A stretch of 64,000 nt of DNA from a virus (lineage: Duplodnaviria > Caudoviricetes), in the IMG/VR virus record IMGVR_UViG_3300034062_004332, positions 1,687 through 65,686 of that record. One strand, written 5' to 3'. Every line of letters starts with the position of its first letter. The stretch's first letter is position 1. Shown here piece after piece: positions 322 through 45,109 of this stretch. The notes beneath the pieces are model-generated. The model made no database searches, was not told where the DNA came from, and worked only from the letters and a program-made list of their open reading frames with translations. Position numbers and translations under genes: made by a program.

Positions 322-671
322 TGTTCGCCCCGGTAGAACAGTTGACGCGAGCCACGTTCAATCTCCCAATCAGTTTCACCCTCAGCATGTGCGTACCAAG
401 TGTGATTCTTCTGGTAGATACCTGCGCCACAGTATGTATGCAGGAGTGCATTAAGACGTGATTTAGTTGTAGGTGTTTGCCATGAGCAATCGCTGATGTC
501 AAGTTCATCGGGTGTGATGATTGCAATGGTTGAACCATGCAACCTTACATAAATCCTGTCGATCGTAGTTTCACCGTGAGGGAAACTAACTACTTGGACT
601 TCTGTATTATCGAGACGCCAATCGCGGCGCTCGTTGATTGCTGCGATCATTTGCTGTTCGATCTTACGCAT
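318..671 (-). CDS. Conserved phage early hypothetical protein
   Basis: 117 aa; WQTPTTKSRLNALL segment resembles a common phage early protein. Confidence 0.75.
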   Translation of the reverse strand: MRKIEQQMIAAINERRDWRLDNTEVQVVSFPHGETTIDRIYVRLHGSTIAIITPDELDISDCSWQTPTTKSRLNALLHTYCGAGIYQKNHTWYAHAEGETDWEIERGSRQLFYRGEQ

Positions 672-742
672 TGATCTAGATGGTGATTGTGTTGGTATTG
701 TATGAAGGGCGCCCCGCGTTAGCGGGACTAGGTTAGTTAAAG

Positions 743-2471: not shown

Positions 2472-2717
2472 TCAGCGTTTGATCTGTGCCATCGGATAAC
2501 GTTGGCGCACAATAGCTACAGCGTCATCACGATCGGATGCGCGGATGTAGTCATCCCACAAGCCATCTTCATCCTGCACATAATACAAAGGCGCACCACA
2601 ACCAAAGTAAACACCTCCACGGATGTATCCCCCTTGATTGATACGTTCCTTGCGGATGTACACCTTGCCGGTGTACTCCTTGCACAGTTGTGCAACTTCA
2701 CTGGGCCACATGGTCAT
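2472..2717 (-). CDS. Hypothetical protein
   Basis: RINQGGY..GGVYFGCGAPLY...RASDRDDA; ATG at 2717. Confidence 0.7.
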   Translation of the reverse strand: MTMWPSEVAQLCKEYTGKVYIRKERINQGGYIRGGVYFGCGAPLYYVQDEDGLWDDYIRASDRDDAVAIVRQRYPMAQIKR

Positions 2718-2754
2718 AACAATCCCCGCCAATGTAGACGGGTGCTAACAACAA

Positions 2755-2806
2755 GTGAGGGTGAATCCCTCAGGGTGGGATACATAATCCCACCGGGAGA
2801 GAATCA
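2755..2806 (-). ncRNA. Structured RNA/DNA motif, copy 1
   Basis: TGATTCTCTCCC-[GGTGGGAT TATGT ATCCCACC]-CTGAGGGATTCACCCTCAC; flanks identical to copy 2. Confidence 0.6.
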
Positions 2807-3115
2807 AACTAGAGCTGGCACATACAACTGATCGTTAAATGCTCCAAGCTGTCTAAACTTGTAGTACAGATTCTTATACGCTACACGTTCATCATTGATC
2901 TTAAATGTGTAGCGAAGTTGCCCACCGATAGTCTTACTTACTGTGCATGATAAGCACAACTCACCGTTACGCTTGCCATTAAGATCATACGTTGCCATGT
3001 AGTGCTTGCACACTCCAGGCAATCTATAATCAACAATTCCGTTGCGTTGTTCGTAATTTTCTAACGCAAGTTGCTCAGTCAACTTAACAGCGTTGAGATA
3101 ATCGTTGCAGTTCAT
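2804..3115 (-). CDS. Hypothetical protein
   Basis: 103-aa ORF, AACTAACCC upstream. Confidence 0.65.
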   Translation of the reverse strand: MNCNDYLNAVKLTEQLALENYEQRNGIVDYRLPGVCKHYMATYDLNGKRNGELCLSCTVSKTIGGQLRYTFKINDERVAYKNLYYKFRQLGAFNDQLYVPALV

Positions 3116-3145
3116 GAGATTAAGTTGCGCTGGGTTAGTTATAGA

Positions 3146-3226
3146 TCAGCGGGGAAGTTTGGCCGCTTGCTTACGCTGAAGGCCCGCAGCTTTACGTGCA
3201 ATGGCTTCGATTTGCTTGGCAGTCAT
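3146..3226 (-). CDS. 26-aa basic peptide
   Basis: MTAKQIEAIARKAAGLQRKQAAKLPR with AGGTG SD; first ORF of the early cluster. Confidence 0.4.
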   Translation of the reverse strand: MTAKQIEAIARKAAGLQRKQAAKLPR

Positions 3227-3257
3227 GATAAATCACCTGTTAATGCAAAGTGGATTT

Positions 3258-3311
3258 GTGAGGGTGAATCCCTCAGGCAAGATGTATGAAACATCCTGCG
3301 GGAGAGAATCA
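3258..3311 (-). ncRNA. Structured RNA/DNA motif, copy 2
   Basis: TGATTCTCTCCC-[GCAGGATGT TTCAT ACATCTTGC]-CTGAGGGATTCACCCTCAC; inner stem differs from copy 1 but still pairs. Confidence 0.6.
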
Positions 3312-3312
3312 T

Positions 3313-3950
3313 ACAGTGAGCCTCACTGTTACTTAACAACTAGACCAACGTGTTAGCGTCTTGCAAACATTATGGGGCGACACTTACATCTCATGGATGT
3401 AATGTTCCATGCCCTAGTTATCTGTGCGGGGCTACAGATGGCGTTGTACAGTAACAGTGAAGATCACTGTAGGCAGACTAGATACAGTTGGAAGGATAGC
3501 GTCAGGATCATTATTGATCCTCACTAGATCTAAGTTTGATCCGGTCTGCTGACAGCGTACGTTTAATCAGGCCCCCCATAAAGAGTAAGCCTGACAGCAT
3601 TTGTGAAACATAATCAGCGCACAGATTAGATACAGATCACACAATAACCTAGGCTTAGTTACATTGTCTCGCCATCGTGAGACTACCGCTCAGTGGGGAA
3701 CAATGCAGACCGGCGTGGTTACAATAACCAAACCAGTTAGCTATAGGTACAGTGTGACACTGTAACTAACCTGCACGCTGACAATGTAGATACATTGTGC
3801 CTGCAACTTAGGTAAGCTAAGAGTGTTTATCCAATACGTTAGAACGTAAGGCCTACTCAATTCGGCTACATTGTCCTAACTTACCTGTAGATTATGAGAG
3901 AATAATTGCGGCAGGTTTCGTACATCACCTCACGGCTTTCCTACTACGCG
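3313..3950 (-). ncRNA. Candidate large structured non-coding RNA
   Basis: No ORF of 60 aa or more; over 10 hairpins; long-range helices 3541-3549/3705-3713 and 3810-3821/3875-3886 (G-U pairs on the minus strand). Confidence 0.45.
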
Positions 3951-4252
3951 CACAACTATTCTGTTGTCAAGGTTCGTCAACCTTTCAACCCTTAAAGTCT
4001 GCCGCTCACGTTCAACCAAACCGCGCGGCCTTTGCTTACTGATCGGCAGCCCGTATGGGTTGCTTACGTTCGGCGGCTCGCGTGGTGGGCCGTTCGGCCT
4101 GACGCAGACTTCTCAGGTTTTCAAGGTTCAACCGATCCCTGATGGATCAGTGAACCCATATTGGGGGTGGGGGTGCCCCCCATCAACGAACCTTGTGCCG
4201 GTCTCTCGATTGGCACACTCCACCGGGTCTGGGGCAAGGGCAGGGAAGGAAC

Positions 4253-4350
4253 TGCGCACACGCACACGCACCCGCGTATGTAACGCGCACACACGCACAC
4301 ATGCGGGCACACGCACGCACACACGCACGCGCCCACGCGCACGCACGCGT
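4253..4350. repeat. Alternating purine-pyrimidine (CA/CG) low-complexity tract
   Basis: gcgcacacgcacacgca...cacgcgcacgcacgcgt. Confidence 0.85.
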
Positions 4351-4766
4351 TTATAAATAACTCAGGCACCACCCCCATAGTGTGATACAACAGATACGTT
4401 GTTGTAGCTAACTCACAAAGTATAAAGAATAGCTAACTGGTTTGTATAAGCTTATGCTTACGATTACGATTGCACTCCGGTTGTTATAGCTCACCGCAAT
4501 CGGCCTTTTTTTTATACGCGCGCGTTTCACGTCGGGGGCGGCGAGAAGGTTTTTGGTAGCGAGCGGGTAAAACGGGGTCAAAATCTCTGGTATCAGCATA
4601 GTAACAGGGGCGCAAATGCGCAAAACGCCGCGTGGCTACTGCCAAATGCGCCTTTCAAGTCTTTACGGGGCGCTGTTTTTTGTGTGCGTATGGTGACTTA
4701 GGCGCCTAGAAAAAAATTTCGGCGCGGAAATGCTGCCTAGAATATTTTTAGTCTTCTATGAGCCCT

Positions 4767-4895
4767 ATGACTGGCACTAAAGAGGAGCGTATTCGCAAGC
4801 TTGAGGCGGCTCTTGCCGTTGCTGAGCGGGTCAAAAACGGGTTTTTGGCGGCAAACCTGCGGGAAGCGTTGCGTGATGCGCTACGCGAGGTCTGA
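4767..4895 (+). CDS. Small helical hypothetical protein (42 aa)
   Basis: MTGTKEERIRKLEAALAVAERVKNGFLAANLREALRDALREV; TAGAAT -10 at ~4738. Confidence 0.5.
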   Translation: MTGTKEERIRKLEAALAVAERVKNGFLAANLREALRDALREV

Positions 4896-4986
4896 CTAAC
4901 TTCTAATTTGCTCCTAATTTGACTCAAATTAGGAGTTCGCTAGGTCGATTAGACTGACAGCAAGGGTTTTTTAGGGGATTTGCCGC

Positions 4987-5193
4987 GTGGCGTTAGGGCA
5001 AGAGGCGGATCAGTCGCTGGCGGACGTGCGGTTTGGCGACATTGTGCGGGCTTACGGTCCTGAAGCCTCGCTTGGGCCTTTTCTTGAGGAGTTTGCGGAC
5101 GCTCCAGACGATCCTTTTGTCGCCACGTCCGCTGCCAAAGTGTTTCTGAAACAGTATTTGAACGAGCTTGGGGACGTTCCGTCTTTTCGGTAA
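4987..5193 (+). CDS. Hypothetical protein
   Basis: 68-aa ORF; TAGACT -10 at ~4950. Confidence 0.5.
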   Translation: MALGQEADQSLADVRFGDIVRAYGPEASLGPFLEEFADAPDDPFVATSAAKVFLKQYLNELGDVPSFR

Positions 5194-5256
5194 GCTGTTC
5201 GTCTCACTGCAGCCTGCTCGTCGCGTCCTGTGCGCGATTTGTTTAGCTACAGTTGT

Positions 5257-5329
5257 GCGCTCGTGGCCGAATGGATTAGGCAGCATCCTTCTAAGATGCC
5301 TCATGGGGGTTCGAATCCCTCCGAGCGTG
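5257..5329 (+). tRNA. tRNA-Arg(UCU)
   Basis: Acceptor GCGCTCG/CGAGCGT, anticodon arm GCATC-CTTCTAA-GATGC, T-loop GTTCGAATC; no encoded CCA. Confidence 0.9.
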
Positions 5330-5340
5330 TTTAAAACATA

Positions 5341-5363
5341 GGAAAACCGCCCTTTCGAGCGGC
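5341..5363 (-). terminator. Rho-independent terminator
   Basis: GCCGCTC-GAAA-GGGCGGT-TTTCC after the 5373..5735 stop. Confidence 0.6.
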
Positions 5364-5372
5364 TGTTTTCTT

Positions 5373-5735
5373 TTAGTTCATCGCGTTAAGCGTAAAGTAG
5401 ATCTCATCTGGGAAGTTCGAGAAGAATTTAAGGGTTGCGGGACATAGCCAGCCTTTTTCGGTTGCATTGCCCTCAGAATTAAGCTCGTACCACGCGCCTC
5501 CGTGCTCCTCTTCTATTTTTGTAAGTCGAGTTGAGCAAGTAGGAAACTGTCGCTCGCTAAAAGTAATAGCATAGGTTGTTTTGTTTTTTTGGTCTTCGAT
5601 ATTTTCTATTAGTTTGTCGATCATTTCTGGGATCCCTAAGACGAAGGGTTCGTGCAGCAGCCCCCGTGCCTCGTCTGTGAAGCACCACGTCCCCGCGTGG
5701 CGGTAAATTTCGATGGTCATCATGCTGTTGGACAT
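5373..5735 (-). CDS. DUF6717-like protein
   Basis: IYRHAGTWCFTDEARGLLHEPFVLGIPEMID...GWLCPATLKFF signature. Confidence 0.75.
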   Translation of the reverse strand: MSNSMMTIEIYRHAGTWCFTDEARGLLHEPFVLGIPEMIDKLIENIEDQKNKTTYAITFSERQFPTCSTRLTKIEEEHGGAWYELNSEGNATEKGWLCPATLKFFSNFPDEIYFTLNAMN

Positions 5736-5833
5736 TTGATGTGTGTAGGGCTTCTACAGTGTACCACGTAGTACGGCGTTCTTAAGTCGTTTTTGGCGGG
5801 TTTCCGTATACTAGATAAAGATACATAGGTCCG

Positions 5834-8800
5834 ATGCCTCAGCAATTTAATACCGATAATCTGAGGAAGGCTCTAGATCAGTATGCTGAATACGATCGTA
5901 ATAATTATTATGAGTATGATGATGCACGAGAGGCTCTTATAGATCGTGCTGTTCAGAACAGATTATTAAATGAATACATAGAAAATGAAATAAGATATGA
6001 AAGAGAAAACGACCCTGCTTACTATGATGATCCTGATTTTGATCCTGACGGACCTATTGAACAGTATGAGATAGATGAGTACGCCAGACGTTTGGGTGTA
6101 AATGATTTACCTAATGAAGTTCCGTATTCCTCTACTGTTAACGTAGATCCAGATTACGAAGATCTTAATGTTTATAATTTAGTTAATGAGAACCCTAAAG
6201 CTAGAGAATTTTTTACAAGCAATAGAGTTCAATTTGATCCTACGGAGCGTACTGAAGTAGGTGATCGGTTCTTAAGAGCACTGCGAGCCGGTGCGTTTAC
6301 TCCAGAGCAGATCAATAATCTAGCGAACATACGGGCTATTGGGACTTCCTATGCTTTAGAAGATATTTCCGATGAGTCAACTGCATTCGAGGTTGCGAAC
6401 TTTGTTAATCGTGCTGCCACTGGGCGTGATGTGGCTCCATTAGAGCCTATTTATGAAAATACTGCTGAAACGATTAACACAGTAGCTGACTTAAGTTCAA
6501 TAGAACGAGCTTTACGACAGTATTCTTATGACCTGCGTGATACTAGAGAACGTTTAGGGAGGCTTCAGGCTGCTGGATCTACCCCTGTTTCAGGCAGTCC
6601 AGAACCTTTAGCTCAGCGTGGGCAACCGCAACAGCTTTCTCTTTCTGTTGAGTCGGACCCTACACAAGGTCGTTTAGCTTCGCTAACCACGGGTTTTGAG
6701 TCGTTACCGACTTCTTTTAATACAGTCTCTGATCTAACTGAAGCTAGAAATCGTTTACAGAATATTCAGCGAGATCTCAGTGGTCTTATAGGCATAAGGA
6801 ACGACTCTTCTGACAGAGCCCGTGACTTTATTCAATCCTCTGTTTTGCCTTCCGTAAGAGACGCTTTAGGTGATGCTGCCACTGACAGAGCTGTATATAA
6901 CGCATATAGGAACATGATGAATGAGCGTCGCGAAGCTGCGGATAGAGACCGTGATGCGAATGCGCCTAGAGCGAGAAGGAGACCTTACGATGCCTCCGCG
7001 CCTATGCCTGTGTTAGGGCGCAGTTCCGAGGGGATGGCACCTATTACTGGCCTCAACGAAGAACTCCAGCGCGGGCGGATAGAGGAAGTTCGGCAAGCTG
7101 TTGCTCAGTTTCCTGAAGTTGAGCGTTTGCTGCGTGCATCCTTAAAGGATCCAGAAAGATCTCCGATTCGAGGTGCTGCGGCTAAACCGTACCTGGCTTA
7201 CGCAGATACCCAACAGGTTATATCGATGCCTGAGGAAAGAGTACAACTGTATGAAACTCTGCTTGAAACTGAACCTGAGTTTGTTGCGGACCCTGCAGGA
7301 GGGCTAAACGTAGTTCAAGATATTGAAACGTTGTATACTAGCGGGAATCCAGAGTTGCAACAGCGAACATTTGAAACTTTAGATTCTTATGGATTTGGTG
7401 ATCGTTTGCGTGAAATTTCTGTCCCTGCTACGTCCACCACAAGACCTATCGTTGGTGGCGGTGGTTATGTAGGAGGTTTTAAAGAAACGGATGAATCTCG
7501 TGCGTTACGGGGGAAAATAAACGCACGCGCCCAAGCTTTAGAAGCTGCGATGTCGGGTAACGAGGATATTCTTCGTTCTGCTTATCCTGGGTTCTTTGAC
7601 AGACCTTCGGTTTCACGGAAGTTAGAAGTTGTCTACGACCCAGATACTGATACCGTGCGTCCTGCCGGTCCTGGGGACACTAATACCTACGGTATTGCAG
7701 TGAGCACAGGTAATCCTAGATTGAATCCTACTGAAGCAGTTTATGCTTTAGGTAATAACACTGTATCAGCTAACGCTCTGAGGTTCTTTGCAGACAATCC
7801 TGTTTTAGGTTCAACTAGTGTTTCTTTTACGACTAGAACTCCGTCTGAAGGGTATAGCTATGAACCTAAAGATTTACCGTCTGCAGTTAGTGACGCCTTC
7901 GGTCGGTTCGCCCAACGCACGGCCTTACAAGGTCTGCCCCCCGGCACTCTAGTCTCCAACAGCCCTTTAAGCTCTGAAGACTTACTTAGATCGAAGCGAA
8001 GAGAAGGCAAAACTGCGGATACCAGTTCTACTGTTCGAAAGCTAGAAGCGTTTGAAAGCGCTGGACAGCCTCTGCCGAATCTACGAGCTGCTGCGTATAC
8101 AACAGCCGGTTTTGGACCTTATACCGGAGGGTCTCAATACGCTTACATTGATGCAGAAGGCAAAGTCGTTCCTGTACAGCTTGAAAGATCTGGGGGCGGT
8201 TTTTCTGATGCACTGCGTTTTAACCCTTATTCCAATGAGATTGAAGTCGGAAGAGGACGTTTGCCTTTAACAACTAAGGCTTACTACTCTACCGATCCCG
8301 TCACTGCAGCCACGCGGGGCTTAGCCGAGCTGGGGCGTGGTATTCGACGTACTCCGGCGGCTTTAGCTCCTGGTGCTGCCGATCTTATCCCTAGTCCCGA
8401 AGCCATTCAAACCGGATATAGAGAGGGGGCTTTGCCCATGGTACGTCAAATGGGTACTGAGTTTGTGCAGAGTCTTCCTGCTGCTGCAGCTTCTGCCGCT
8501 GTTTTAGCCACGCCGGTCGCTGCTCCTTTAGCTCCTGGTATCGGCGCTGGTATGGTTGGGGTCGCTGGCACTCGCGCTTTGAATGAGGTTGTAAGGCAGC
8601 AGACTGGTGAAGGCGTTGTGCCGAAATTGCGCCAAGTCATTGGTACTGCACCTCGAACCGGCGTGGCTTCTCCACAACGTCGTGGTCCCGCTGTCACCCC
8701 ACAAATCCGTCCGTTGAACCAAGCGCAGCGTGCTGAAATGCAACGTCGGCAGAATCGCAACGAGCTACAAAAACGTATGGATCTGGCTCGTGAGCGGTTT

Positions 8801-21851: not shown

Positions 21852-24575
21852 ATGCCGAGTCGGGAATCGTTTGCTTACCGCCGTGGGACTCAGTTTAAAG
21901 CAGTTCGTGCGCAGGAGAGCGCTCCAGTAACCGTAGATAACATCTATGCTAAAGCGGCAAACGACTTCCAGACCTTCTGTACGGTACTGGATAAACCACC
22001 CGCTAAGCACATGTTAGAGTGGCACCAGCACTTAATTACAGGTGAGTCTAATAAGTACTTGCTAGATATTGCAGGACCTAATCTTGACATTTTAAGTCCG
22101 CGAGGGCCTCTGCATCCAGACACAGAGGTTGCAACTCCCTTGGGCTGGAGGCCACTTAAAAATTTAAATATAGGAGATTTGGTTTACGGGGACGACGGTG
22201 AGCCAACAGAAGTTCTAGATGTAATGTCCTACGGTTCCACAAAGTTATTTGAGGTGACGTTTTCGGATGGAACTTCAATGGTTTGTGATGCGTCGCATCG
22301 GTTTGATGTCAGACGCATGGGGACAGACCCAAAGGGGACCTACCGTACAATGACTTTGCAGGAGATAAAAGATTTTGTTACTACTGGGATTAAAGGTAAC
22401 TGGAGGACCGGGATTCAGCGCACAGTGCGCCAAGCGTTGCCGGGAGAAACACCGTGGCTAGATACAAGAGGTCACAGCAGGTATCAGGTTCCGGTCACTG
22501 CTCCTATTAATTATCCAGAAGCTGATTTGCCTCTCCACCCTTATTTAATCGGTGTTCTTCTAGGGGATGGAGGTTTAACAGATAAAACTTCTATAAACCT
22601 CACAACTATTGATACAGATATAGTTGATTTTATTAATACTATCTTGCCTGAAGATACTATTTTAGTTGAGCGGTCGTATGAATCTCGGAAGTACTCATAT
22701 CAGTTTCAGACGACCCAGGGTGTAAAAAAAACTATTATAGATGGCAGAAGAGGAGGCTTTAAAAAAGAAATTTCTCTACATTTAGAGAACTTGGGTATGC
22801 GAGGTAAAGGGGCGTTAGAGAAGTCTATTCCTAAACAATATTTATATGGGTCTGTGGAGCAGCGTGAATGGCTTCTGCGCGGCCTTATGGATACGGATGG
22901 CACACGAATGTCTCGTAGCCAGCATCAAAGCGATTCTGGTCGCGGAGGGTTAGCGTTCGGTAGCTCTAGCCTACAACTTATTACAGACTTTATAGAGCTT
23001 GTACGCTCTTTAGGTGGTGTTGCGTACTTTAATAAACCATATTATCCTCATTACTTTAAAGGCAAAGAAAAGATTGTAAGTAAAAATTTAGCTTATAGAT
23101 GCAGCTTTGCATTGCCTGCTGACATCAAGCCGTTTTTCTGCAAACGTAAGTCTGACGCTTATAAGGGTCCAGTATCTTCTAGATCTAATCGAGGTGTCGT
23201 TCGATCGATTATAGACATTAAACCGTGCGGGGAGAGCCCTGTAATGTGTATCCGCGTGGCTAATCCAAAAGAACGTTTCGTTATAAAAGATTATGTAGTT
23301 AGTAAAAATAGCGCCAAATCTACGGTCTTGAATTTATTTACTGCATGGATTATTGGGAGGCACACCAGCGCTCAGTTGCCTCTACAGATTATTTACGTTT
23401 CGTACAACATCAATACGGCTATACCGAAGAGTCGGATTATCAAGCAGATCATCGACTCTGTTGAGTTCAAGAAGGTATTCCCTCGTGTAAAACTCAAGAC
23501 GGGGATGCAGTCAGACGTTGGCTGGTCAATTGATTTTGAGTACGCTGGTATCCCTCGCGTAGGTGATGAAGAATTTACTCTAAGAGCTGCAGGATTAAGA
23601 GGATCAATTACATCAAAAAGGGCTCACCTTGTTATTATAGATGACCCGATCAAGTCAAGTACCGACATTAAGAACCCTATTATTAGAGAAGAGATGAATA
23701 ACAACTGGTCTTCTGTGATCTCTCCAATTATTTTTGAAGGTGGACGCTCTATATGTCTAGGGACGCGCTTCCACCCACTCGATATTCACAAAACTCTCTT
23801 CGTGGAGTCTAAGGGCTGGAAGCAGGTTACGCAAGAGGCTTTGACCTATGACAACCATGGTAATGCGATCAGTTACTGGCCCGAGCAGTGGTCTGTGAGC
23901 TACCTGCAACAGCAGAAGGAGCTGGACCCCGTGGCTTTTGCCTTCCAGTATCAACAGCAGCCCGTACTAACCTCTGATTTGATCGTTTCGCCTGAGTTGC
24001 TTGTCAAAGGTGAGGTAGTTACAGAGTTTGATTCGCTAGCGGTCGGCATTGACTTGTCGGCCAGCAGGAATGAAACCAGCGACTACACGGCTTTCGTGTT
24101 GGGCGGACGGCTCAAAGATATGTACTACATAATCGACGCGCACCAGTGTCGAAGTATCGGCAACTTAGAGAAGATTGATTTATTGTGTGACATGTTATTA
24201 GAGTGGGGGATTTTGGTTAAACAGGACAACATCTATGCACCTACATACTCCACGGTGACACTCGTGGTCGAATCCGTGGCGTATCAGGCGTCCTTGGCAG
24301 CGGACATCAAACGGGTCTTAATTAACGAGCGCGAATTGACGAATTTAAATATCCATGAAGTCAAAGGGTTCCGGGGCGACAAGCTGTCGCGTTTCCGAGG
24401 TACACTTGGTATCCTTGAACACAAGAAGGTGGTGTTTAACAAATATCGCAAGTTTGATGCGCTATTTGAACAGTTGATTAATGTGGGTGCTACGTCTCAC
24501 GATGACTTACTGGATGCTTACACACACCTGATCACGTTCCTTCAGCGTCGCGGTAGTTTTTCGATCGAATACTGA
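21852..24575 (+). CDS. terL: Terminase large subunit with intein
   Basis: Walker A PRG|SAKST split by the intein; Walker B VIIDD; GTRFH; nuclease GIDLS...DYTA...HDDLLDA. Confidence 0.93.
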   Translation: MPSRESFAYRRGTQFKAVRAQESAPVTVDNIYAKAANDFQTFCTVLDKPPAKHMLEWHQHLITGESNKYLLDIAGPNLDILSPRGPLHPDTEVATPLGWRPLKNLNIGDLVYGDDGEPTEVLDVMSYGSTKLFEVTFSDGTSMVCDASHRFDVRRMGTDPKGTYRTMTLQEIKDFVTTGIKGNWRTGIQRTVRQALPGETPWLDTRGHSRYQVPVTAPINYPEADLPLHPYLIGVLLGDGGLTDKTSINLTTIDTDIVDFINTILPEDTILVERSYESRKYSYQFQTTQGVKKTIIDGRRGGFKKEISLHLENLGMRGKGALEKSIPKQYLYGSVEQREWLLRGLMDTDGTRMSRSQHQSDSGRGGLAFGSSSLQLITDFIELVRSLGGVAYFNKPYYPHYFKGKEKIVSKNLAYRCSFALPADIKPFFCKRKSDAYKGPVSSRSNRGVVRSIIDIKPCGESPVMCIRVANPKERFVIKDYVVSKNSAKSTVLNLFTAWIIGRHTSAQLPLQIIYVSYNINTAIPKSRIIKQIIDSVEFKKVFPRVKLKTGMQSDVGWSIDFEYAGIPRVGDEEFTLRAAGLRGSITSKRAHLVIIDDPIKSSTDIKNPIIREEMNNNWSSVISPIIFEGGRSICLGTRFHPLDIHKTLFVESKGWKQVTQEALTYDNHGNAISYWPEQWSVSYLQQQKELDPVAFAFQYQQQPVLTSDLIVSPELLVKGEVVTEFDSLAVGIDLSASRNETSDYTAFVLGGRLKDMYYIIDAHQCRSIGNLEKIDLLCDMLLEWGILVKQDNIYAPTYSTVTLVVESVAYQASLAADIKRVLINERELTNLNIHEVKGFRGDKLSRFRGTLGILEHKKVVFNKYRKFDALFEQLINVGATSHDDLLDAYTHLITFLQRRGSFSIEY
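22107..23309 (+). mobile_element. Intein (401 aa) with LAGLIDADG endonuclease, class-3-like
   Basis: PLHPDTEVATPLGW...VMCIRV...VVSKN|S; LAGLIDADG helices LIGVLLGDG and LRGLMDTDG. Confidence 0.9.
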
Positions 24576-31210: not shown

Positions 31211-33718
31211 GTGCCCTACTTACCTCTACCAAACTTTAACTACGACTCTGGGCCGAGACGCATACAGTCTGGCCCAAATCACGAAGGTTATGTAGTTTTA
31301 TATTCTGGGGTTGAGTCTACTGGGGCTAATGACGGTTTTGCTGTACTTGGCGCTCCTCTCAGTGGGACGTTAGCTCTTGGAGCGTGGGATTATGACTCGA
31401 ACTGGCGGTACGTTCCGTCCACGCTGCCGAGTCAAAGCGGTTCGCTAAATCCGACGCCATACAACGTCAGCGGTGCGTTAGATACGTATGACGCTACGCG
31501 TATTTATACACGGGATACCGTAGCTGGAGCCCAGGCGGCGAGTGCGATCGGGCCGGAGACTGGAAAGGTCAATCCGCGTGGTGGGGCACTACAGGCTCGG
31601 TCGGATGTCACTCGGCCTGAGACCTATATGTACTTCGGGGGTGGAGCCCCGGACAATCAAGACTATTCACCGTATAACACACCGGATGCTAACAGCGCTG
31701 CTGAGGGTAAAACCGGCGGCGGGGTTACTCACAGATCGTTTGAGAGTTCGCTGCTGACGAACGTTTTAGGCAGTCAAGGTACATCTGATCGTTCTCAATG
31801 GCGGTATCACCAGCCGGTGTACTGCAAGACGTACACGGAAACTCGCCGGTCTGAAACACCCGGCTTAATGTCCACGCCGCTTCGGTATGTTTATCGAGGC
31901 TCGGCTAGTTCATATAACTATAACTACGGTAGTGAGCTGCTTGCTAATAAGGGTGGGTTCGAGTTACTGCCTTATGACGATGAAGTTCTTGGCTGTCCGT
32001 TCCCTGTCGGTTGTCCGACAAACTCTGGTTCTTCTGACCAGTTGATTGTTGGTGATACTTTATCTGCAGTTGTTTATTGTCCTTTCGTTAAGATAGAGTG
32101 GTTTAATTCTGATAATACTTTATTGGGGACTGGTTTAACCTATACTACTACGTCTGCTGATATAGATTATAGAATATATTTTAAAGTTACTTATCCTGAT
32201 GGATCTACTGACAGCTCGTCTACTAACTGTTTCCCTGTTGTTATTGCAGACTCTCTCAGATATTGGTATCGCAGATACAGTACGGGTGCCACTAGAGCAA
32301 AAGTATACTCGTCTGTAGTAGATAATAACGGAGATATGTATGTTGTTCAGTATGTAGGTTCTAGTGTTTTTCCTGCTGTATACAAAATTTCTAATGACGT
32401 TACGCAGCAGTGGGGGCGTGTTTATACCTTAGACCCATCTAAGTTAGCTACAGCTGCGAACGACTTTGGGTCTTCTTATTACTTGTTAAATACAGGACAA
32501 AATCACATCGATTTTCTGGCGTGGCAGTGGACGCCTGCAGGGCCTCCTTATGATTATGATTATCCTGTACGTATTTACAGGTATAGAATTAGCAAAGCGG
32601 ACGGTTCTGTTATTAGCACTGTCGCTTTAGATTGGAACCCTGCTCCCACATTTCCTCCGCTTTACTTCAGTATAAGAGAAGCCAAAGTAGATAGTGACAA
32701 TAACTATTACTTTGTTGGTTCTTTTCCAATACAAGGTGAAATTTTAGTTCCGTGTATCTTAAAATTTACAGAAAGCTTCGAATTTGTTTGGTGTCGTGCT
32801 GTTCAAAAGAAAGTATATAGAACAGCGTTTGGTGATATTTTATGCTCCGCGACTTTACTTGATGGCGGCAGTCCTCAATTTTTGACCTTAAACATTACCG
32901 ACTCTAGTATTATCGGTTGTATGTCTCTATCTAGTACTACTTATGTTGTAAGTAATTATTTTGAGTTGTCTGAATCTGGAAATACTTTAAATAGCTTTTA
33001 CGCTAAATTTAGTACATCTGATTTTGCTAATGATACAAACCCTTTTCAGCCTCGTTCAGTTTGTAGGGACTCAGATGGGAACATTTATGGTGTTGGCGGG
33101 TATGAAACAAGCGTAGCTTTAGGTAGGTTCGCTAGCGTTATTGTATACAAAGATTCTCCATCAGATACTACTGTGTGGGCTAAAGATATAAGGAACACCT
33201 TTTATTATGCTAGTATATCTTCTATAAATGTTTTAAGTAATCAACTATTAGTAATTAACGAAAAACTTGTATTTGTTGCTCCGTGGACTGCTAATACGCT
33301 TCCCGTAACGCATAATTTACTACTGTTTGTTTTTGATACTGAGACAGGTGTTTTAGAACAATGTATAGAACTTAAACCTCCAGACGAAATTGGAGATCGT
33401 GTAATCATCCAACGTTTGCCGGAAAATAATAAATTTTTTGTTCAAACGGATAGTGGTTATAGAATAAGACTTGATATTACAGATCTTCCTGCTAATGGAA
33501 ACTATATCTGTACTGATAATGTTTCAAATAAATACACTGCTAGTGGTTTAGTTCCTGCAGCCAGCAATCATACTTTTTATCGTTTTACTTCTTGTACTCC
33601 TGCGGGGTTTATTACGCGAAACATAGGTTCTTATTTTACATCCGTTAGTCCTGTTGTTACAACTTCAGGCGCTACGGGCGGAATGTTTGGAGATTTTGCT
33701 GGCCAAGATATTCCTTAA
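31211..33718 (+). CDS. Virion structural protein with Ig-like and beta-propeller-like C-terminal region
   Basis: 835 aa; repeats such as VDNNGDMYV, VDSDNNYYFVG, DSDGNIYGVG. Confidence 0.7.
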   Translation: MPYLPLPNFNYDSGPRRIQSGPNHEGYVVLYSGVESTGANDGFAVLGAPLSGTLALGAWDYDSNWRYVPSTLPSQSGSLNPTPYNVSGALDTYDATRIYTRDTVAGAQAASAIGPETGKVNPRGGALQARSDVTRPETYMYFGGGAPDNQDYSPYNTPDANSAAEGKTGGGVTHRSFESSLLTNVLGSQGTSDRSQWRYHQPVYCKTYTETRRSETPGLMSTPLRYVYRGSASSYNYNYGSELLANKGGFELLPYDDEVLGCPFPVGCPTNSGSSDQLIVGDTLSAVVYCPFVKIEWFNSDNTLLGTGLTYTTTSADIDYRIYFKVTYPDGSTDSSSTNCFPVVIADSLRYWYRRYSTGATRAKVYSSVVDNNGDMYVVQYVGSSVFPAVYKISNDVTQQWGRVYTLDPSKLATAANDFGSSYYLLNTGQNHIDFLAWQWTPAGPPYDYDYPVRIYRYRISKADGSVISTVALDWNPAPTFPPLYFSIREAKVDSDNNYYFVGSFPIQGEILVPCILKFTESFEFVWCRAVQKKVYRTAFGDILCSATLLDGGSPQFLTLNITDSSIIGCMSLSSTTYVVSNYFELSESGNTLNSFYAKFSTSDFANDTNPFQPRSVCRDSDGNIYGVGGYETSVALGRFASVIVYKDSPSDTTVWAKDIRNTFYYASISSINVLSNQLLVINEKLVFVAPWTANTLPVTHNLLLFVFDTETGVLEQCIELKPPDEIGDRVIIQRLPENNKFFVQTDSGYRIRLDITDLPANGNYICTDNVSNKYTASGLVPAASNHTFYRFTSCTPAGFITRNIGSYFTSVSPVVTTSGATGGMFGDFAGQDIP

Positions 33719-33805: not shown

Positions 33806-36245
33806 TTGTTCGTCGACAATGATTTTCCGAAGCTGCTCGGTGCAGAACTCTACCGTCCGCATCAATAGGTGCCTAAGTGGTGAAAGTCACTTAGCAAATC
33901 CCGTGAATTGCTGGAATCCTTCTTCCAGTGCTTAACAACCCTTCGGGGGAACCTTGACAATCAGACCCGGCCACACCGGGCGCAAAATATTTAAAGACTT
34001 CTCTTTGAGCACGGAGGAGTCGAGGAAATCAGCAGCGAAGCCGCGTGGGAACATGCGGAACGTTCAGAGACTAGATGAAGTAATCCAGACCGGATGAAAC
34101 ATCCACGAGCGCGGGACACCCTACAGGTAAGCTGAGGGTGATGATATAGTCCGAGCTTACACGATAGTAAAGTGTAAGAACTAGAAGATAAAGAGCTTCT
34201 AGGATAACAATCTGCCTGCGTACGTTGTAGAGATGGCTGCGGAGCCTGTTGTAGTCCATGACTTCAGCAAGCAACCAGGCCAGACTGTGCAGCTTGACCG
34301 TTATCGGTTCTAGACTATTACCCTGGAACCCTAAGGTGAAAGCCTTAGTTTAACAAACTCCGTGAATTGCTGGAAGCCCTTCAACGCATTAAGCGCGGGT
34401 AATCAGCAGCCGAGCCAGGTGGTAACATCTGGAAGGTTCAGAGCATAGCTGTGTCTAATCTTTCTGCGACGGATTTTGAATTTGTTTTAGGCTGCGGCGT
34501 GGGAGATGGGAGTTTTTCTCTCATTTCTACTAAGCGAGGAGACAGAAACTATTACTACCCTCGTTTAAAAATTACGCACGGTGTTGAACAAGTTGATTAT
34601 CTGAGGTGGAAAGCTGATCGCATAAACTCGATCTTTAATCGGACGACCCCTGTATCGTACGTATTCAAGAAAGAGTCCAGAGAAGGCTGGAAAGACTTCG
34701 AAGGTTATGAGTACAAATTTACTCATTCTGATCTTCGACCGTTTTACGATTTGCTTTATCCCAATCTTCAGGGTTCAAAGAAAATTACTCGCGAGCTTCT
34801 CGCTGAGTTAAACGGTGTCCCCCTTGGACTTCTCTTTATGGATGACGGAAGCGGCGGTCTCTATCTGGAACAAAATAACCGCAAACTAAAAAGCGGTTAT
34901 AAACGATACGAGTATTTAGTTCCTCGTATCGAATTTGCAACCAACGGTTTTACTTCTGAGTGTGTGACGCTTTTAGCTGACTGGATAGCGTCTGTAAGCG
35001 GTTGCGGCACACGCATTAAACAGAAGACGAATCGAATTTGCATTGTCCAGAAAGACTGTTATAAATTTAGGGATTTTATAGATCCCTATGTGCCGATTTC
35101 CTGTATGCGATACAAACTAGACCTTGAAACTGTAAAAAGTTTCAAGCGAGTCCTTACGGGACAATAAGCAGCCACGAGTGCGGAGCCCCAAACGTAACCA
35201 GCCGTGGGTGATGATGTATGCCGACCTTACGGGATGATAAACCGTAAGAACTAGAGGATAAAAAGCCTTTAGGTTAACAAATGGGGGCAATCCCGGCTCT
35301 AAGGAATCGCGTGAGCGTACTGCAGAACAAACCATTGGTACTGCGAACAGCAGGAACATTGTCAAGGACAAAGTTCTTGTAACTCTTCGTGAGTACACAG
35401 GTCCTGCTGATCCTAGCGATCCTACTCAACCTAGCACTTTTAAGATTGCTAGAGAGACCCTGATTACCGCGCAGCGTTTACTGCTGGACACTGGTAATCT
35501 GACGGCCTTCCATCAATCTATTGGTTCTCTGACTCTGTTAGACGACTATAGAAGATGGCGCGACAGAGTGTTCATTAATGAACTCCTGAAGGCTGTTTCG
35601 AAGGGTCAATCTTCTGACACCCAAGGTGGTTACTACTACCCTGGTGATCTTGCAGTTGGTGCCCTTTCGTACGCTAACGCCGAGCAAGCCAAGTTCGACG
35701 TTAAGGACGATCTTCTCCGCGTGGTTAAGTCTCTGCGCAAGAGAAACGTCCCGACGTATCAGGATGGTTTTTATCGCTGTGTGTGCGATCCGACCTTCCT
35801 TATGCACCTGAGACAGAATAGCGACTTCCGTGAAGTTGCTCGCTATCCTGGCAACGGTCAGATCAACCCTCTCATGTCTTCGATGCAGCCTAACGCTGCT
35901 ATCTACATGGGTCAGGGTTTCGGTCAGGCTACTTTTGTAGCCGGTGAACCGATCATGCCCACTGGATTTGTGTTCGAAGGCGTTAGATTTTTCGAGAGCA
36001 CAAACATGCCCTCGCAGAGTCAAACTGCCACGATCGCTTCTACTAGCGCTTCGTACGAAACTGCCATCGGCATGTTCTTCGGCCCTCAGAGCGTCGGTGT
36101 GGGTATCGGCGGCAACAACGCTCAAGTGTTGTTGAATAATAACGACGATTTCAGCAGATTTATCATGATGATTTGGAGCCTGTACGCAGGTTTCGAACTC
36201 CTGAACGCTGATTTCGCCACCATCGCTTATTCCTTCAACGCTTGA
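33806..36245 (+). CDS. Major capsid protein, spliced: join(33806..33862,34215..34311,35284..36245), 371 aa
   Basis: GGAGG SD + TTG; spliced frame MFVDNDFPKLLGAELYRPH|PAYVVEM...DRYRF|WGNPGSKE... continuous with ORF 35568..36245. Confidence 0.85.
33863..34214 (+). mobile_element. Group I intron 1 (352 nt, no ORF)
   Basis: Exon U with IGS GUGC; core GAATTGCTGGAA, AATCAGCAG, GTTCAGAGACTA, GATATAGTCC; terminal G. Confidence 0.92.
34312..35283 (+). mobile_element. Group I intron 2 (972 nt) with homing endonuclease
   Basis: P1 GGTTCT/GGAACC; GAATTGCTGGAA, AATCAGCAG, GTTCAGAGCATA, GATGTATGCC; terminal G. Confidence 0.92.
34451..35167 (+). CDS. Intron-encoded LAGLIDADG homing endonuclease
   Basis: VLGCGVGDGS and GLLFMDDGS double motif; SCMRYK end. 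Confidence 0.88.
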   Translation: MSNLSATDFEFVLGCGVGDGSFSLISTKRGDRNYYYPRLKITHGVEQVDYLRWKADRINSIFNRTTPVSYVFKKESREGWKDFEGYEYKFTHSDLRPFYDLLYPNLQGSKKITRELLAELNGVPLGLLFMDDGSGGLYLEQNNRKLKSGYKRYEYLVPRIEFATNGFTSECVTLLADWIASVSGCGTRIKQKTNRICIVQKDCYKFRDFIDPYVPISCMRYKLDLETVKSFKRVLTGQ

Positions 36246-42635: not shown

Positions 42636-44171
42636 GTGGCCAAACGCTCCGCTGGGGATAACTTTAACCCCAAGCGTTATGAGGGCGCAAAACGCATAGA
42701 AAAGAACGGTCACTTTCATGGAGCCGACTCTTCTTTTCAGCTTTCGCGCCCGATGCCTTTTAAACAAAGGTTTCGCCCGGCTGTAGGTACAAAAGACTTC
42801 AGCATTCTTAGTGACTACGATTACGCGTCACTTTGGAGCCGATGGCGCCGTGGCTATGAACTGTCAATGTACACCCAGCAGGTGTACCAAGCGTATGAAA
42901 ATAGCTACAAGTACTACTACACTAATGTGATTGGGGTAGGGCCTTACATACCTGGCCTTATGTTTATGTACCCCAATACGCGCAATGACGAGCGTATGTG
43001 GTCGGTGTTTATTCAACCTCAGGGATCGTTTAATTTCAAAGATTTTGGGTTAGCTGTTTCTTCTGTTACTGACTATACAGACACAATATATGCTGTTCAG
43101 TTTTCAAATTCTTTTGGTTTACCTGTATCCTCTTTTAAAGGAGAAGTTATAGCCAATAGAATTGACTCCAGCGGCATCCAACGTAAATTCGGTTTTGGAA
43201 ACTATACAGTTGTTGGAGTTGGTCTTAACGGTGTCTTAGACAATAATGTAAATTATTCGTCATTGTATAACACTTTATTCTTGAGTCATGACGAAGCAAC
43301 GAGTTGGCAAGTAGTTGACGCTAATACTCTGCAAGTGCCTGCGGCTGGTCCTCCCAGTGTGGGAGATTTTTTCACCACGGAACTCAAAGCGCAGTGTAAC
43401 TGTCCTGATTTTTTAAATAGAGAAACTGTCAATCTGTATGAAATTAGTCTCAAAAAGAGATACCCGTACACGGGTGTTCTCAACATGAAGCCTGGTTTTT
43501 ATGACGCAGGGTCTCAAAGCCAAGAAGATAGAGTTTTAAGATCTATAGACGATCCAGGTTGGGCTCGAAGTTTTGGTTTTATCTATTTAAACGAGATATA
43601 CAATATTCCTAATTATACTCAAGATACATACTCAGATCCTAATTTGTATTATTTTCAGCCCAAATGGTGTAAACATATTTATGCTGCTATGTGGGATCTG
43701 CAGCGTAAATTTAATCAGGGTGATGCAGTAGCTGAATGGCTGCCTCAGCCTAACGACGAGCCTACGCACCCTGCTTATCGAGAGATGTTCGACAGGGACC
43801 TCGATAAACAAATGAACTTCTTTAAGCGCGAGCGCGATTACAGATGGTGGCTTCGGTACGGTCCAACAAGATCTGAATTACCTACTCGTGTTTTAAATCC
43901 TGATACGTATAATGTATTTTCTAAATTAACTAACGCTGGAACATTAGACAGTCCTACGGTTGTTTTGGCTTCTGGGCTTACTTTTTTTGACACTAACTCA
44001 TATACTCCTTTTGTACCTCCTTCCGGTTTAGACGTTTATGATGGCGGAACTTACGCTAGCGGTATCCGTCTGCCTCCCGCCCCCGTGGTTACTCTTGATG
44101 GAGGGCAGTATGCCAGCGGTATCTTAATTTCTGCTATTGCGTTTCCTATTAACGGAGGTATCTATACATGA
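42636..44171 (+). CDS. Structural protein with split SWIM-like motif
   Basis: CNCPDF ... CKHIYA; C-terminal DGGxY repeats. Confidence 0.65.
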   Translation: MAKRSAGDNFNPKRYEGAKRIEKNGHFHGADSSFQLSRPMPFKQRFRPAVGTKDFSILSDYDYASLWSRWRRGYELSMYTQQVYQAYENSYKYYYTNVIGVGPYIPGLMFMYPNTRNDERMWSVFIQPQGSFNFKDFGLAVSSVTDYTDTIYAVQFSNSFGLPVSSFKGEVIANRIDSSGIQRKFGFGNYTVVGVGLNGVLDNNVNYSSLYNTLFLSHDEATSWQVVDANTLQVPAAGPPSVGDFFTTELKAQCNCPDFLNRETVNLYEISLKKRYPYTGVLNMKPGFYDAGSQSQEDRVLRSIDDPGWARSFGFIYLNEIYNIPNYTQDTYSDPNLYYFQPKWCKHIYAAMWDLQRKFNQGDAVAEWLPQPNDEPTHPAYREMFDRDLDKQMNFFKRERDYRWWLRYGPTRSELPTRVLNPDTYNVFSKLTNAGTLDSPTVVLASGLTFFDTNSYTPFVPPSGLDVYDGGTYASGIRLPPAPVVTLDGGQYASGILISAIAFPINGGIYT

Positions 44172-45109
44172 CTTCAACTCCTGTAACTATTCTTGTTTTA
44201 CGGTCTAACTTAAATTCAGATAGACCTAGCGGCACTATTCTCCAGTTTGGAGAAATGGCCTTGTGCGCTGGGTCAGGTGATCCTGGATTCTATTTTCTTG
44301 ACACTAATAGCGATGTTCGTAAGATCGGTCCTGCGGGGTATGGAACGACAGCTCCTAACGCTATCTATGTAGGAGCCTCGGGCAACTCTGTTGGCGAAGC
44401 GTGGACTGATTCAAATGTACATAACTATTACAAAGTTTGGAATGGTGTTGATTGGGTTAAGGTAAGTGCAGGGTTTTCTGATACAGCTACGTTATCTTCC
44501 GGGGCTGTTCAAGCATCAGGTGCTTTACTTGCATCTGGAGCTTATCTAGCTTCTGGTGCTATACAGGCATCTGGGGCTATCTTGTCTTCGGGTGCTCTAT
44601 TAGCATCAGGTGCTTATCTTGCGTCCGGTGCTATACAGGCTTCTGGGGCTATTCTAGCTTCAGGTGCTTTACTTGCATCTGGAGCTTATCTAGCTTCGGG
44701 TGCAATACAAGCGTCTGGAGCTATCTTAGCGTCTGGGGCTATTACTAGCGAAACAGCTACACTCGCATCGGGAGCTATTTTAGCTTCTGGTGCTGTCTCT
44801 TCCACTTCAAGCACTACTACTATTCTGGCTTCAGGTGCTGTTCTAGCGTCCGGCGCAATATTTAGCGAAACAGCAGCACTAGCTTCAGGCGCTATTTTGG
44901 CGTCTGGTTCTGTTTTTAGTGATACAGCAACACTTGCATCCGGCGCTGTTTATGCCTCTGGTGCTAGTTCAATTGCCACGGTGATTGCAAGCGGACTGCC
45001 TGATCCGGTGACGATTGAATCCGGCGTGGCTTACTTGCAGCTCGAAAGTTCGGGCACGTATCCGTCTGGTTTGTACATACGTGCCGGGAGTGACTGGTAC
45101 TTTATCTAA
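44168..45109 (+). CDS. Fibre-like protein with (xxASGA)n hexad repeats
   Basis: Fibre-type N-terminus (RPSGTILQFGE...KIGP..GTTAPN) plus about 23 Ser-Gly hexads. Confidence 0.75.
   Translation: MTSTPVTILVLRSNLNSDRPSGTILQFGEMALCAGSGDPGFYFLDTNSDVRKIGPAGYGTTAPNAIYVGASGNSVGEAWTDSNVHNYYKVWNGVDWVKVSAGFSDTATLSSGAVQASGALLASGAYLASGAIQASGAILSSGALLASGAYLASGAIQASGAILASGALLASGAYLASGAIQASGAILASGAITSETATLASGAILASGAVSSTSSTTTILASGAVLASGAIFSETAALASGAILASGSVFSDTATLASGAVYASGASSIATVIASGLPDPVTIESGVAYLQLESSGTYPSGLYIRAGSDWYFI
44490..44990 (+). repeat. Degenerate 18-nt coding tandem repeat (72-nt higher-order unit)
   Basis: SGAIQASGAILASGALLASGAYLA about x3, synonymously diverged. Confidence 0.85.

Follow-up and report, generated by a model that had tools for sequence, protein, structure and literature searches.

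A gap poor in open reading frames (ORFs) in a 64,000-nt stretch of phage DNA (hereafter the window, bases 1687–65686 of the 65.7-kb IMG/VR virus record IMGVR_UViG_3300034062_004332, rated 81% complete) holds a large structured non-coding element, which represents, in the window, a family of such elements in uncultured freshwater phages that had not been described before. An initial annotation, made from the window's letters, had proposed a large structured non-coding RNA (ncRNA) at 3313–3950, with no recognized signature of GOLLD or ROOL and co-oriented with the small genes to its left. Homologues were found and their helices covary, and the excess structure of this hairpin-rich stretch is well beyond chance. 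The feature is probably an RNA in the sense of the leftward small genes, with boundaries and several helices that differ from those first listed: conservation spans a 5′ untranslated region (5′-UTR) motif at 3260 to a right motif at 3964–3982 and continues to about 4400, rather than ending at 3950. Neither the large element nor the 5′-UTR motif was found in Rfam 15 or in the accessible parts of the literature on S-EIV1 and other cyanophages, on GOLLD and ROOL, and on cyanophage intergenic ncRNA.

All ten hairpins of the initial annotation are true inverted repeats with stems of 5–7 bp. Its 9-bp helix (3541–3549/3705–3713) is Watson-Crick at nine of nine positions, and its 12-bp helix (3810–3821/3875–3886) comprises 10 Watson-Crick pairs plus two A.C mismatches in the plus sense that equal G.U pairs in the minus sense. 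No ORF of 60 aa or more lies inside 3313–3950, as had been stated; the longest stop-free stretch in the six frames of 3301–3975 is 56 aa. Folding against dinucleotide shuffles bears out the proposed structure: the plus strand of 3313–3950 reaches −211.0 kcal/mol against −171.8 ± 7.8 for 20 shuffles (z −5.0), the minus strand −231.6 kcal/mol against −180.2 ± 8.0 (again 20 shuffles; z −6.4), and the native energy was attained by 0/20 shuffles of either strand. All 64 kb were also scanned in 200-nt segments with a custom script, z being obtained by regression on one shuffle per segment and strand. Against a background with a mean of about −0.6 and a standard deviation of 1.2, segment 3601–3800 (z −5.1 plus, −7.5 minus) ranks second of all, and 3301–3500 (−3.6/−4.2) and 3701–3900 (−2.8/−4.4) are among the lowest nine. 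The sole stronger segment, near 44.6 kb (44478–44800), consists of about 13 tandem copies of an 18-nt (6-codon) unit in ORF 44168–45109; inverted repeats are missing from it, and it reflects repetitive coding sequence rather than an RNA.

Nucleotide similarity did not lead to homologues: BLASTN in distant mode, with 3100–6000 and with one relative's element as queries, gave no match among 50,697 phage records. Loci fetched via the neighboring 1005-aa protein (37–38% identity) contain a syntenic gap that is itself excessively structured and shares two short boxes with the window, on the left GAATCCCTCA, 17–24 nt, and GGGAGAGAATC, and on the right TTGTCAAGGTTC. Exact-pattern scans of IMG/VR located the left box in 43 stretches and the right box in 33; the two flank 441–774 nt in 14 distinct sequences, the window's distance being 654 nt. 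Further members were gained by a third scan with a core pattern, and the family as a whole comprises 26 or more distinct sequences from IMG/VR phage contigs. A covariance model (R1) built on 24 core sequences scores all 24 at 80–156 bits and recovers two loci outside the training set, L074 (58.7 bits) and L104 (52.2 bits). In L154 a weak second match beside the main copy (576–731, minus strand; 30.8 bits) may be a tandem partial duplicate. Spacing is also conserved: left box and core lie 130–137 nt apart in 20/24 rows having the left box, and core and right box 241–330 nt apart in 21/24 rows having the right box, with the window as an outlier (318 and 199 nt, respectively). Across 22 elements the longest stop-free stretch is 46–91 aa and none is common between elements. 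Sixteen members, when folded, have native energies beyond the shuffled mean by 12–59 kcal/mol.

Other routes to the family were less productive. The pattern TTAGTTACAG-N115–145-CTGTAACTA, made of words from the conserved helix P1, gave 31 new loci that are coding-like and have no R1 match, and we regard these mostly as chance; an R1 search of 36 loci, including these 31, was likewise negative. The element is absent from the loci found via the 103-aa left neighbor (L013 and L014). The cultured relative Synechococcus phage S-EIVl has no R1 match at E ≤ 1 and no exact 5′-UTR motif, an empty result that proves little. S-EIVl also supplies the sole match among the 50,697 phage records to the window's portal-like protein (45.7% identity over 78% of its length), and the source is an uncultured freshwater phage distantly related to it.

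The core of the element was tested on a 24-sequence alignment (23 distinct) with an RNAalifold structure, using 500 shuffles and controls in which pairing partners were slid by 1–3 columns. RNAalifold predicts 32 pairs, 16 with compensatory changes. Core cells are 92.9% paired, compared to 77.3 ± 0.9% in shuffles, and 114 are changed on both sides, compared to 35 ± 4.5; in both measures 0/500 shuffles scored as high. The slid controls were 29–36% paired, and the conserved helices thus covary above both kinds of control. Helix P1 (3623–3635 with 3760–3772, minus strand) encloses the core; five of its 12 pairs are invariant, and covariation is seen in the outer two (UA 10, GC 5, AU 2, CG 2). Within it, P3 is a three-part minus-strand hairpin (3665–3670/3697–3702, 3673–3675/3693–3695, and 3678–3682/3688–3692) around a near-invariant GCCATCG, with 16 pairs, 13 of them changed on both sides, and 89.6% of cells paired.

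Several of the hairpins first listed have to be reinterpreted in the light of this fold. Hairpin 3748–3764 competes with P1, and 3666–3683 is not family structure but a pairing alternative to the conserved P3. Hairpin 3567–3594 corresponds to P2 (minus strand; −13.1 kcal/mol minus vs. −6.8 plus), which keeps its place while its stem sequence varies between members, as judged by eye from the alignment rather than statistically. Hairpin 3781–3798 is P5 (minus strand), just outside P1; at this position 14 relatives have a hairpin, with 82.5% of cells paired and one pair compensatory. The 9-bp helix is real yet confined to the window's lineage. A comparison of the window with its relative L042 on the window's own minimum-energy folds (31 differences, with one pair compensatory and many broken) was uninformative, because those folds differ from the conserved structure. 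One arm of a perfect 16-nt inverted repeat (3729–3744/4429–4444, arms 684 nt apart) lies in the core and the other at the gap's only sigma-70-like site; in L042 the left arm is identical and the right arm falls in a 97%-identical block, so covariation cannot be judged there.

In 14 relatives the loop of a hairpin beside the core pairs with a downstream segment, forming a pseudoknot in which three of six pairs are compensatory. When P5, P6 and the pseudoknot were tested together on these 14 sequences, the percentage paired and the number of cells changed beat 500/500 shuffles, and two type-count measures did not. The window's copy lacks the pseudoknot module and therefore has a shorter right half. 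On the other side of the core is a cluster of four GATC sites (3506, 3516, 3527, and 3538; 3506–3541). Three GATCs, spaced about 10–11 nt apart, are conserved family-wide in the alignment, the first being invariant and the second nearly so. The proposed hairpin 3504–3521 does pair two conserved GATCs, but its flanks show no covariation across the family; by eye, therefore, it is the sites themselves that are conserved.

The right-hand domain was tested separately on 10 sequences aligned in the minus sense, with 500 shuffles. Of its 37 predicted pairs, 20 are compensatory (10.9 ± 2.1 in shuffles; 0/500), 90.5% of cells are paired (75.5 ± 1.2), and all five measures beat 500/500 shuffles. Comparative evidence for structured RNA was thus obtained for the core and the right-hand domain, and on two measures for P5/P6/pseudoknot. 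Within the right-hand domain, an "alpha" domain (3810–3885, minus strand) consists of a long helix (3810–3822/3874–3885) with inner helices at 3824–3826/3868–3870 and 3851–3853/3864–3866. The long helix is the 12-bp helix of the initial annotation, now seen to be conserved and covarying, with 8 of its 12 pairs changed on both sides: AGGTAAG/CTTACCT in the window is replaced elsewhere by ACAGTG/CACTGT, AGAGTG/CACTCT or TCAGTG/CACTGA. Hairpin 3835–3848, also on the earlier list, is present inside the alpha domain, but at an insertion point that varies. A terminal helix (3904–3910 with 3951–3957, minus strand) has seven pairs, four of them compensatory, and contains a small hairpin (3927–3929 with 3934–3936, minus strand) with the minus-sense loop GUGA.

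The right motif (3964–3982) comprises TTGTCAAGGTTC and a small hairpin (3971–3973/3980–3982), and a similar second copy of the motif lies at 4118–4129. Beyond it, the 24-member alignment continues as conserved non-coding sequence (3983–4400); this was assessed by eye and covariation was not counted. At about 4250–4350, purines and pyrimidines alternate over about 100 nt in a CACACGC-type tract, in principle prone to forming Z-DNA, which occupies the same place in several relatives (e.g., L017, L084, and L169). A further conserved non-coding block, at 4490–4550 and in relatives, reads CCGCAAT, a run of eight T, ATA and then GACGNNGGGGGCGGCGAGAA; the minus-strand ORFs 4408–4623 and 4484–4645 overlap it and may be spurious.

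Parts of the element appear to be exchangeable. L042 lacks exactly 3312–3462, with an ATCA junction and flanks that are 93–99% identical. The same 151 nt are absent from the other 22 aligned members, and no second copy was found in the window or in the fetched loci. This lineage-specific insert forms its own minus-strand domain with 29-nt closing arms (3312–3340/3443–3471), and it accounts for four of the listed hairpins (3313–3329, 3384–3402, 3420–3439, and 3454–3470), which do not belong to the element in general. In L042, 3801–4188 is also replaced by about 496 unrelated bases, between parts otherwise 91–99% identical, and RNA and DNA contigs from other samples break exactly at 3859 and 3976. 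The swapped L042 segment, the several versions of the right-hand domain across the family and the contig breaks point to modular exchange inside the element.

The 5′-UTR motif occurs twice in the window, both times on the minus strand. Copy 1 (3260–3311) lies immediately before the Shine-Dalgarno sequence and start codon (ATG at 3228) of the first leftward ORF (3148–3228, 26 codons; AGGTGA 7 nt upstream of the ATG, by eye), and copy 2 (2757–2806) lies between the leftward ORFs 2804–3115 and 2472–2732. In the gene sense the motif reads GAUUCUCUCC, a variable hairpin, UGAGGGAUUC and then CCCUC. The exact pattern is found in 43 IMG/VR stretches, and the fetched loci hold 65 distinct copies (one mismatch per box allowed), always 20–40 nt before an ATG; the start MTAKQIEAIARK of the first leftward ORF also follows the motif in L042 and L084. 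Nearly all distinct variable segments (47/48) form a hairpin of at least 5 bp, with 26 G.U pairs in the gene sense vs. 2 in the opposite sense, and their loops include nine UNCG and two GNRA in the gene sense (UUCG and GAAA among them) vs. none and two, respectively, in the opposite sense.

The GAGGGA box of the motif is able to pair with either the upstream UCUCUC or the downstream CCCUC, giving mutually exclusive helices. By eye, each of the two shows a compensatory change: in UCUCUC/GAGGGA, U-A becomes C-G in three copies (two in L029, one in L039), with the intermediate U.G in two more (seen in L032), and in L084 GAGGG/CCCUC becomes GAGAG/CUCUC. As a control, bacterial genomes gave 21 matches to the boxes, compared to about 29 expected by chance (our own arithmetic), and the hairpin was present in only 1/21. 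That one, with the full hairpin, is on a Prochlorococcus single-cell contig (L214, ~6988–7029) whose surroundings have no useful cultured-phage match; judging from this one sequence, it hints that the motif may also occur in marine cyanophage-like DNA. A reading of the left motif as a T3/T7-like promoter (CCCTCA … GGGAGA) was dropped, as the 17–24-nt hairpin between the boxes misfits promoter geometry and the 57 window ORFs scanned gave no match to any RNA-polymerase family. By its sequence patterns, the 5′-UTR motif is an RNA element in the gene sense.

Four lines of evidence favor the minus sense for the large element as well. The first is a GNRA loop in minus sense at one homologous right-hand hairpin (alignment columns 61–64) in 10/10 sequences (GUGA 5, GCGA 3, GCAA 1, GUAA 1), with only N and R varying. 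Second, the excess stability over shuffles is larger in the minus sense in 13/16 members (mean −42.9 vs. −32.7 kcal/mol), a comparison that left out six near-duplicates and four rows without a motif. The third is a G-to-A change at 3543 in L042, after which the 9-bp helix would survive only as a minus-sense G.U pair, and the fourth is the 5′-UTR motif itself. Wobble cells in the right-hand domain number 57 in the minus sense and 38 in the plus sense. The proposed co-orientation with the leftward genes therefore draws support from the GNRA site, the stability asymmetry and the 5′-UTR motif, but not from wobble counts in the core, which do not separate the strands. We consider it probable that the element is a structured RNA in the minus sense. 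Since the large element directly adjoins the 5′-UTR motif at a constant spacing, one minus-sense transcript is the simplest reading, and we judge it clearly likelier than all the alternatives taken together.

We infer that the large element lies on the same transcript as the genes behind it and acts on them in cis. As a complete proposal, namely that the window holds a copy of a multi-domain structured RNA that is the minus-sense leader of a leftward small-gene operon, or is processed from it, and acts in cis, we would give it an even chance. Such a transcript would run from the right motif and its small hairpin (3982–3964) into the right-hand domain (3957–3810), with the GNRA-capped hairpin and the long covarying helix, then through P5, the P1-closed core with P3 inside (3772–3623), and P2. 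The GAUC cluster and the 151-nt extra domain would follow, and the 50-nt 5′-UTR motif (3311–3260) would come last, abutting the ribosome-binding site of the first gene. How the RNA might act can be proposed only tentatively, and the specific cis-acting mechanism that follows seems to us somewhat doubtful. The large fold could work via the 5′-UTR motif, where the choice of UCUCUC or CCCUC as the partner of GAGGGA would set read-through, stability, or translation through ribosome access, and the fold may be the platform on which a host or phage factor docks.

Known phage systems offer partial precedents for this arrangement. The put RNAs of phage HK022 are cis-acting antitermination elements in early operons. 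The 5′-UTR motif resembles them in having two adjacent stem-loops in about 50–60 nt, in the gene sense, and in more than one copy per operon of early-type small genes; it has no known sequence relation to them, and its position 20–40 nt from start codons could equally suit control of translation or stability. Phage T7 has RNase III processing hairpins between its early genes, which likewise recur as structured elements in the spacers between small early genes and combine conserved flanks with stems that vary, but the T7 sites are single long irregular hairpins.

Several observations weigh against the leader RNA proposed here. Within the core, wobble pairing amounts to 53 G.U cells in the plus sense vs. 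17 A.C cells, one U.G pair of P3 is invariant in the plus sense in 24/24 sequences, and on the plus strand the unpaired positions are enriched in A (0.317, vs. 0.207 for T). Outside the homologous GNRA site, the tetraloop census is weak (8 minus vs. 4 plus among 209 hairpins). P1 has two mismatches in the window's own copy and more in that of L042, and the unit may be composite, given that its right-hand domain comes in three or more interchanged versions. Of four sequencing runs compared with the window, out of 24 listed, one true metatranscriptome (X18) contains a single 255-nt contig over 3759–3976 that is then unlike the window; it gives neither strand nor ends, and DNA carry-over is possible, while X19 and X20 are RNA only by guess. 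The runs with matching DNA are metagenomes of lake water and freshwater, 17 of which contain at least half of the sampled words. Neither a convincing promoter nor a convincing terminator was seen at the borders of the element, in a scan of 3000–6000 and by eye in the conserved blocks: this interval has one sigma-70-like site (minus, 4448–4419), compared to 3.4 ± 2.0 in shuffles, and two terminator-like sites near 5220–5238, none at the element's edges. Finally, signals at the DNA level are suggested by the conserved, helically phased GATC triplet, by the GACAAG-like repeats and by the tract of alternating purines and pyrimidines.

The best-placed alternative, which we nevertheless think unlikely, is a free-standing large ncRNA in the minus sense that is made early and acts in trans as a scaffold, sponge or ribozyme (roles also suggested for GOLLD and ROOL) after release by termination or cleavage at the 5′-UTR motif. 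Size, a multi-domain fold, the pseudoknot in relatives and conserved unpaired blocks are typical of large ncRNAs, and in many copies a U-rich run, UUUGUUGUU, follows the GAGGG/CCCUC hairpin and could end the transcript; more speculatively, the three palindromic GAUC sites could mediate RNA–RNA contacts. That hairpin has just 5 bp, however, no U run follows the window's first copy, and the 5′-UTR motif recurs between genes with no large RNA ahead of it. The obvious comparison is with GOLLD and ROOL, large ncRNAs of phages and bacteria that form Rfam families. Like them, the element is several hundred nucleotides long, multi-domain, phage-associated, from lake or environmental samples, near tRNA genes, and of a function that is not known. 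It differs from both in being fixed directly upstream of a gene block, in being joined to the recurrent 5′-UTR motif and in having a modular right-hand domain, and it has no sequence or covariance-model match to either, in agreement with the initial annotation, which had recognized no GOLLD or ROOL signature. Searched with Rfam 15 at E ≤ 1, positions 2500–6500 give five matches (one tRNA and four sub-threshold ones in 4179–4386), none in 3230–3990. At the gathering score, the whole window yields a group I intron and four tRNAs, none on the element, and the scan therefore works on this DNA. Four relatives' loci gave tRNAs only. A bolder version must also be called improbable, namely that a freshwater cyanophage-like lineage makes a discrete early RNA of about 0.7–1.2 kb, a new giant class with its own catalytic, scaffolding or self-assembling function, plus a far more widespread 50-nt two-state switch gating each early gene.

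A DNA-level control region in the divergent gap (a replication origin, packaging site or operator array, with hairpins extruded in single-stranded or supercoiled DNA and GATC methylation read by proteins) is in our view quite unlikely. The position of the element fits such a role, at the switch in gene orientation and at the minimum of cumulative GC skew. Short words cluster in it (4/5 window copies of TACATTGT and 3/6 of TAGATACA are here), and by eye GACAAG-like and TAGTTAC-like words recur in relatives. The three GATCs, about one helical turn apart, are kept despite varying flanks, the alternating CACACGC tract is nearby, as is a T8-ATATA block near 4505, about 550 nt right of the end first proposed, and wobble counts in the core, if taken as balanced between the strands, are as expected with no selected RNA strand. 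What would be unexpected for duplex protein-binding sites is the free covariation in many helices with arms 20–150 nt apart, the pseudoknot in relatives, and a GNRA loop whose variation is limited to N and R; in addition, the greater excess stability of the minus sense, seen in 13/16 members, speaks for G.U pairing. The element has no replication or packaging gene beside it, the terminase genes being 18 kb away, and a Pfam search of 43 large ORFs in this record turned up no initiator, polymerase, primase or helicase. A DNA-level function such as an origin or methylation-sensitive control may nonetheless overlap the element, or even be primary.

Two known systems bear on this overlap. RNA II of ColE1 is the structured primer RNA, about 550 nt long, of a replication origin, and it shares with the element a multi-stem-loop architecture of several hundred nucleotides in a non-coding region. 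A primer of this type could reconcile RNA-type covariation with origin-like DNA features (GATC cluster, repeats, and skew minimum), but there is no sign here of an antisense partner, RNase H-type processing or an origin. The GATC clusters of phage P1 pac and of oriC similarly have TGATC-type sites within a few helical turns that are conserved as sites, but here the three or four sites sit amid parts that covary like RNA, far from the terminase genes.

That the plus strand is the one transcribed, giving a structured RNA divergent from the small genes, is very unlikely. This reading would account for the plus-sense wobble excess, invariant P3 pair and A-rich unpaired positions of the core, and it gains from one pseudoknot pair that is U.G in the plus sense in 5/14 sequences and from an A–T skew that is positive in 20/22 elements (zero in one and negative in one). 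It is opposed by the GNRA site, the stability asymmetry, the fixed spacing to a minus-sense RNA motif and the G.U-only rescue in L042, and an RNA that began at the second motif copy on the plus strand would run antisense to a gene. Chance or functionless decaying repeats, such as remnants of small inverted-repeat mobile elements, are scarcely credible: the 151-nt insert, with its 29-nt inverted arms and absence from L042, does behave like a discrete unit inserted or deleted, albeit one seen nowhere else in the window or among the loci fetched, but the remainder occurs in 26 or more distinct sequences that preserve its position, its length and, through compensatory changes, its pairing, which already contradicts this reading everywhere outside the insert.

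Few large structured RNAs are backed by covariation, and what most of them do is not known. The family described here adds one with a fixed place directly ahead of small, probably early, phage genes, a position that makes its function testable once a host–phage pair is found. The 5′-UTR motif may be a general device for controlling gene expression in uncultured aquatic phages.

The wider setting is that of a tailed-phage genome: the window encodes a large terminase, the portal-like protein, lysins and a tail chaperone. To the left of the structured element are small minus-strand ORFs, a group that includes a member of the Kyano_Gp96 family (318–671). To its right, the first plausible plus-strand genes begin near 4758, followed by a tRNA-Arg (5256–5330) and the 1005-aa ORF at 5834. 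The protein encoded by this ORF has no Pfam or PHROG family, no relative in PDB, no lead from the Atlas, and no tblastn match among the 50,697 phage records. A metagenome scan with it found a 66% identical relative, L007, whose contig begins at the equivalent of ~4165 and hence does not cover the element. Window positions 4914–5333 (a 68-aa ORF and the tRNA-Arg) are 81% identical to 767–1185 of L007, above the 73% of the adjacent 1005-aa gene. Just after the plus-strand ORF 4758–4895 is a perfect 12-bp palindrome with a 1-nt center (4911–4935), which may be a bidirectional terminator.

Two observations concern more distant parts of the window. The 907-aa large terminase (21852–24575) matches no Pfam family at E 1e-4, and its N-terminal part also matches PHROGs named DnaC-like helicase loader (E 1.7e-7) and primase (3e-5). 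The group I intron detected by Rfam (33840–34173; 72.3 bits, E 2e-16) lies just past an 835-aa ORF (31211–33718) in a low-GC stretch (0.387) and is followed by an ORF for a LAGLIDADG endonuclease (34451–35167; Pfam E 3.6e-12).

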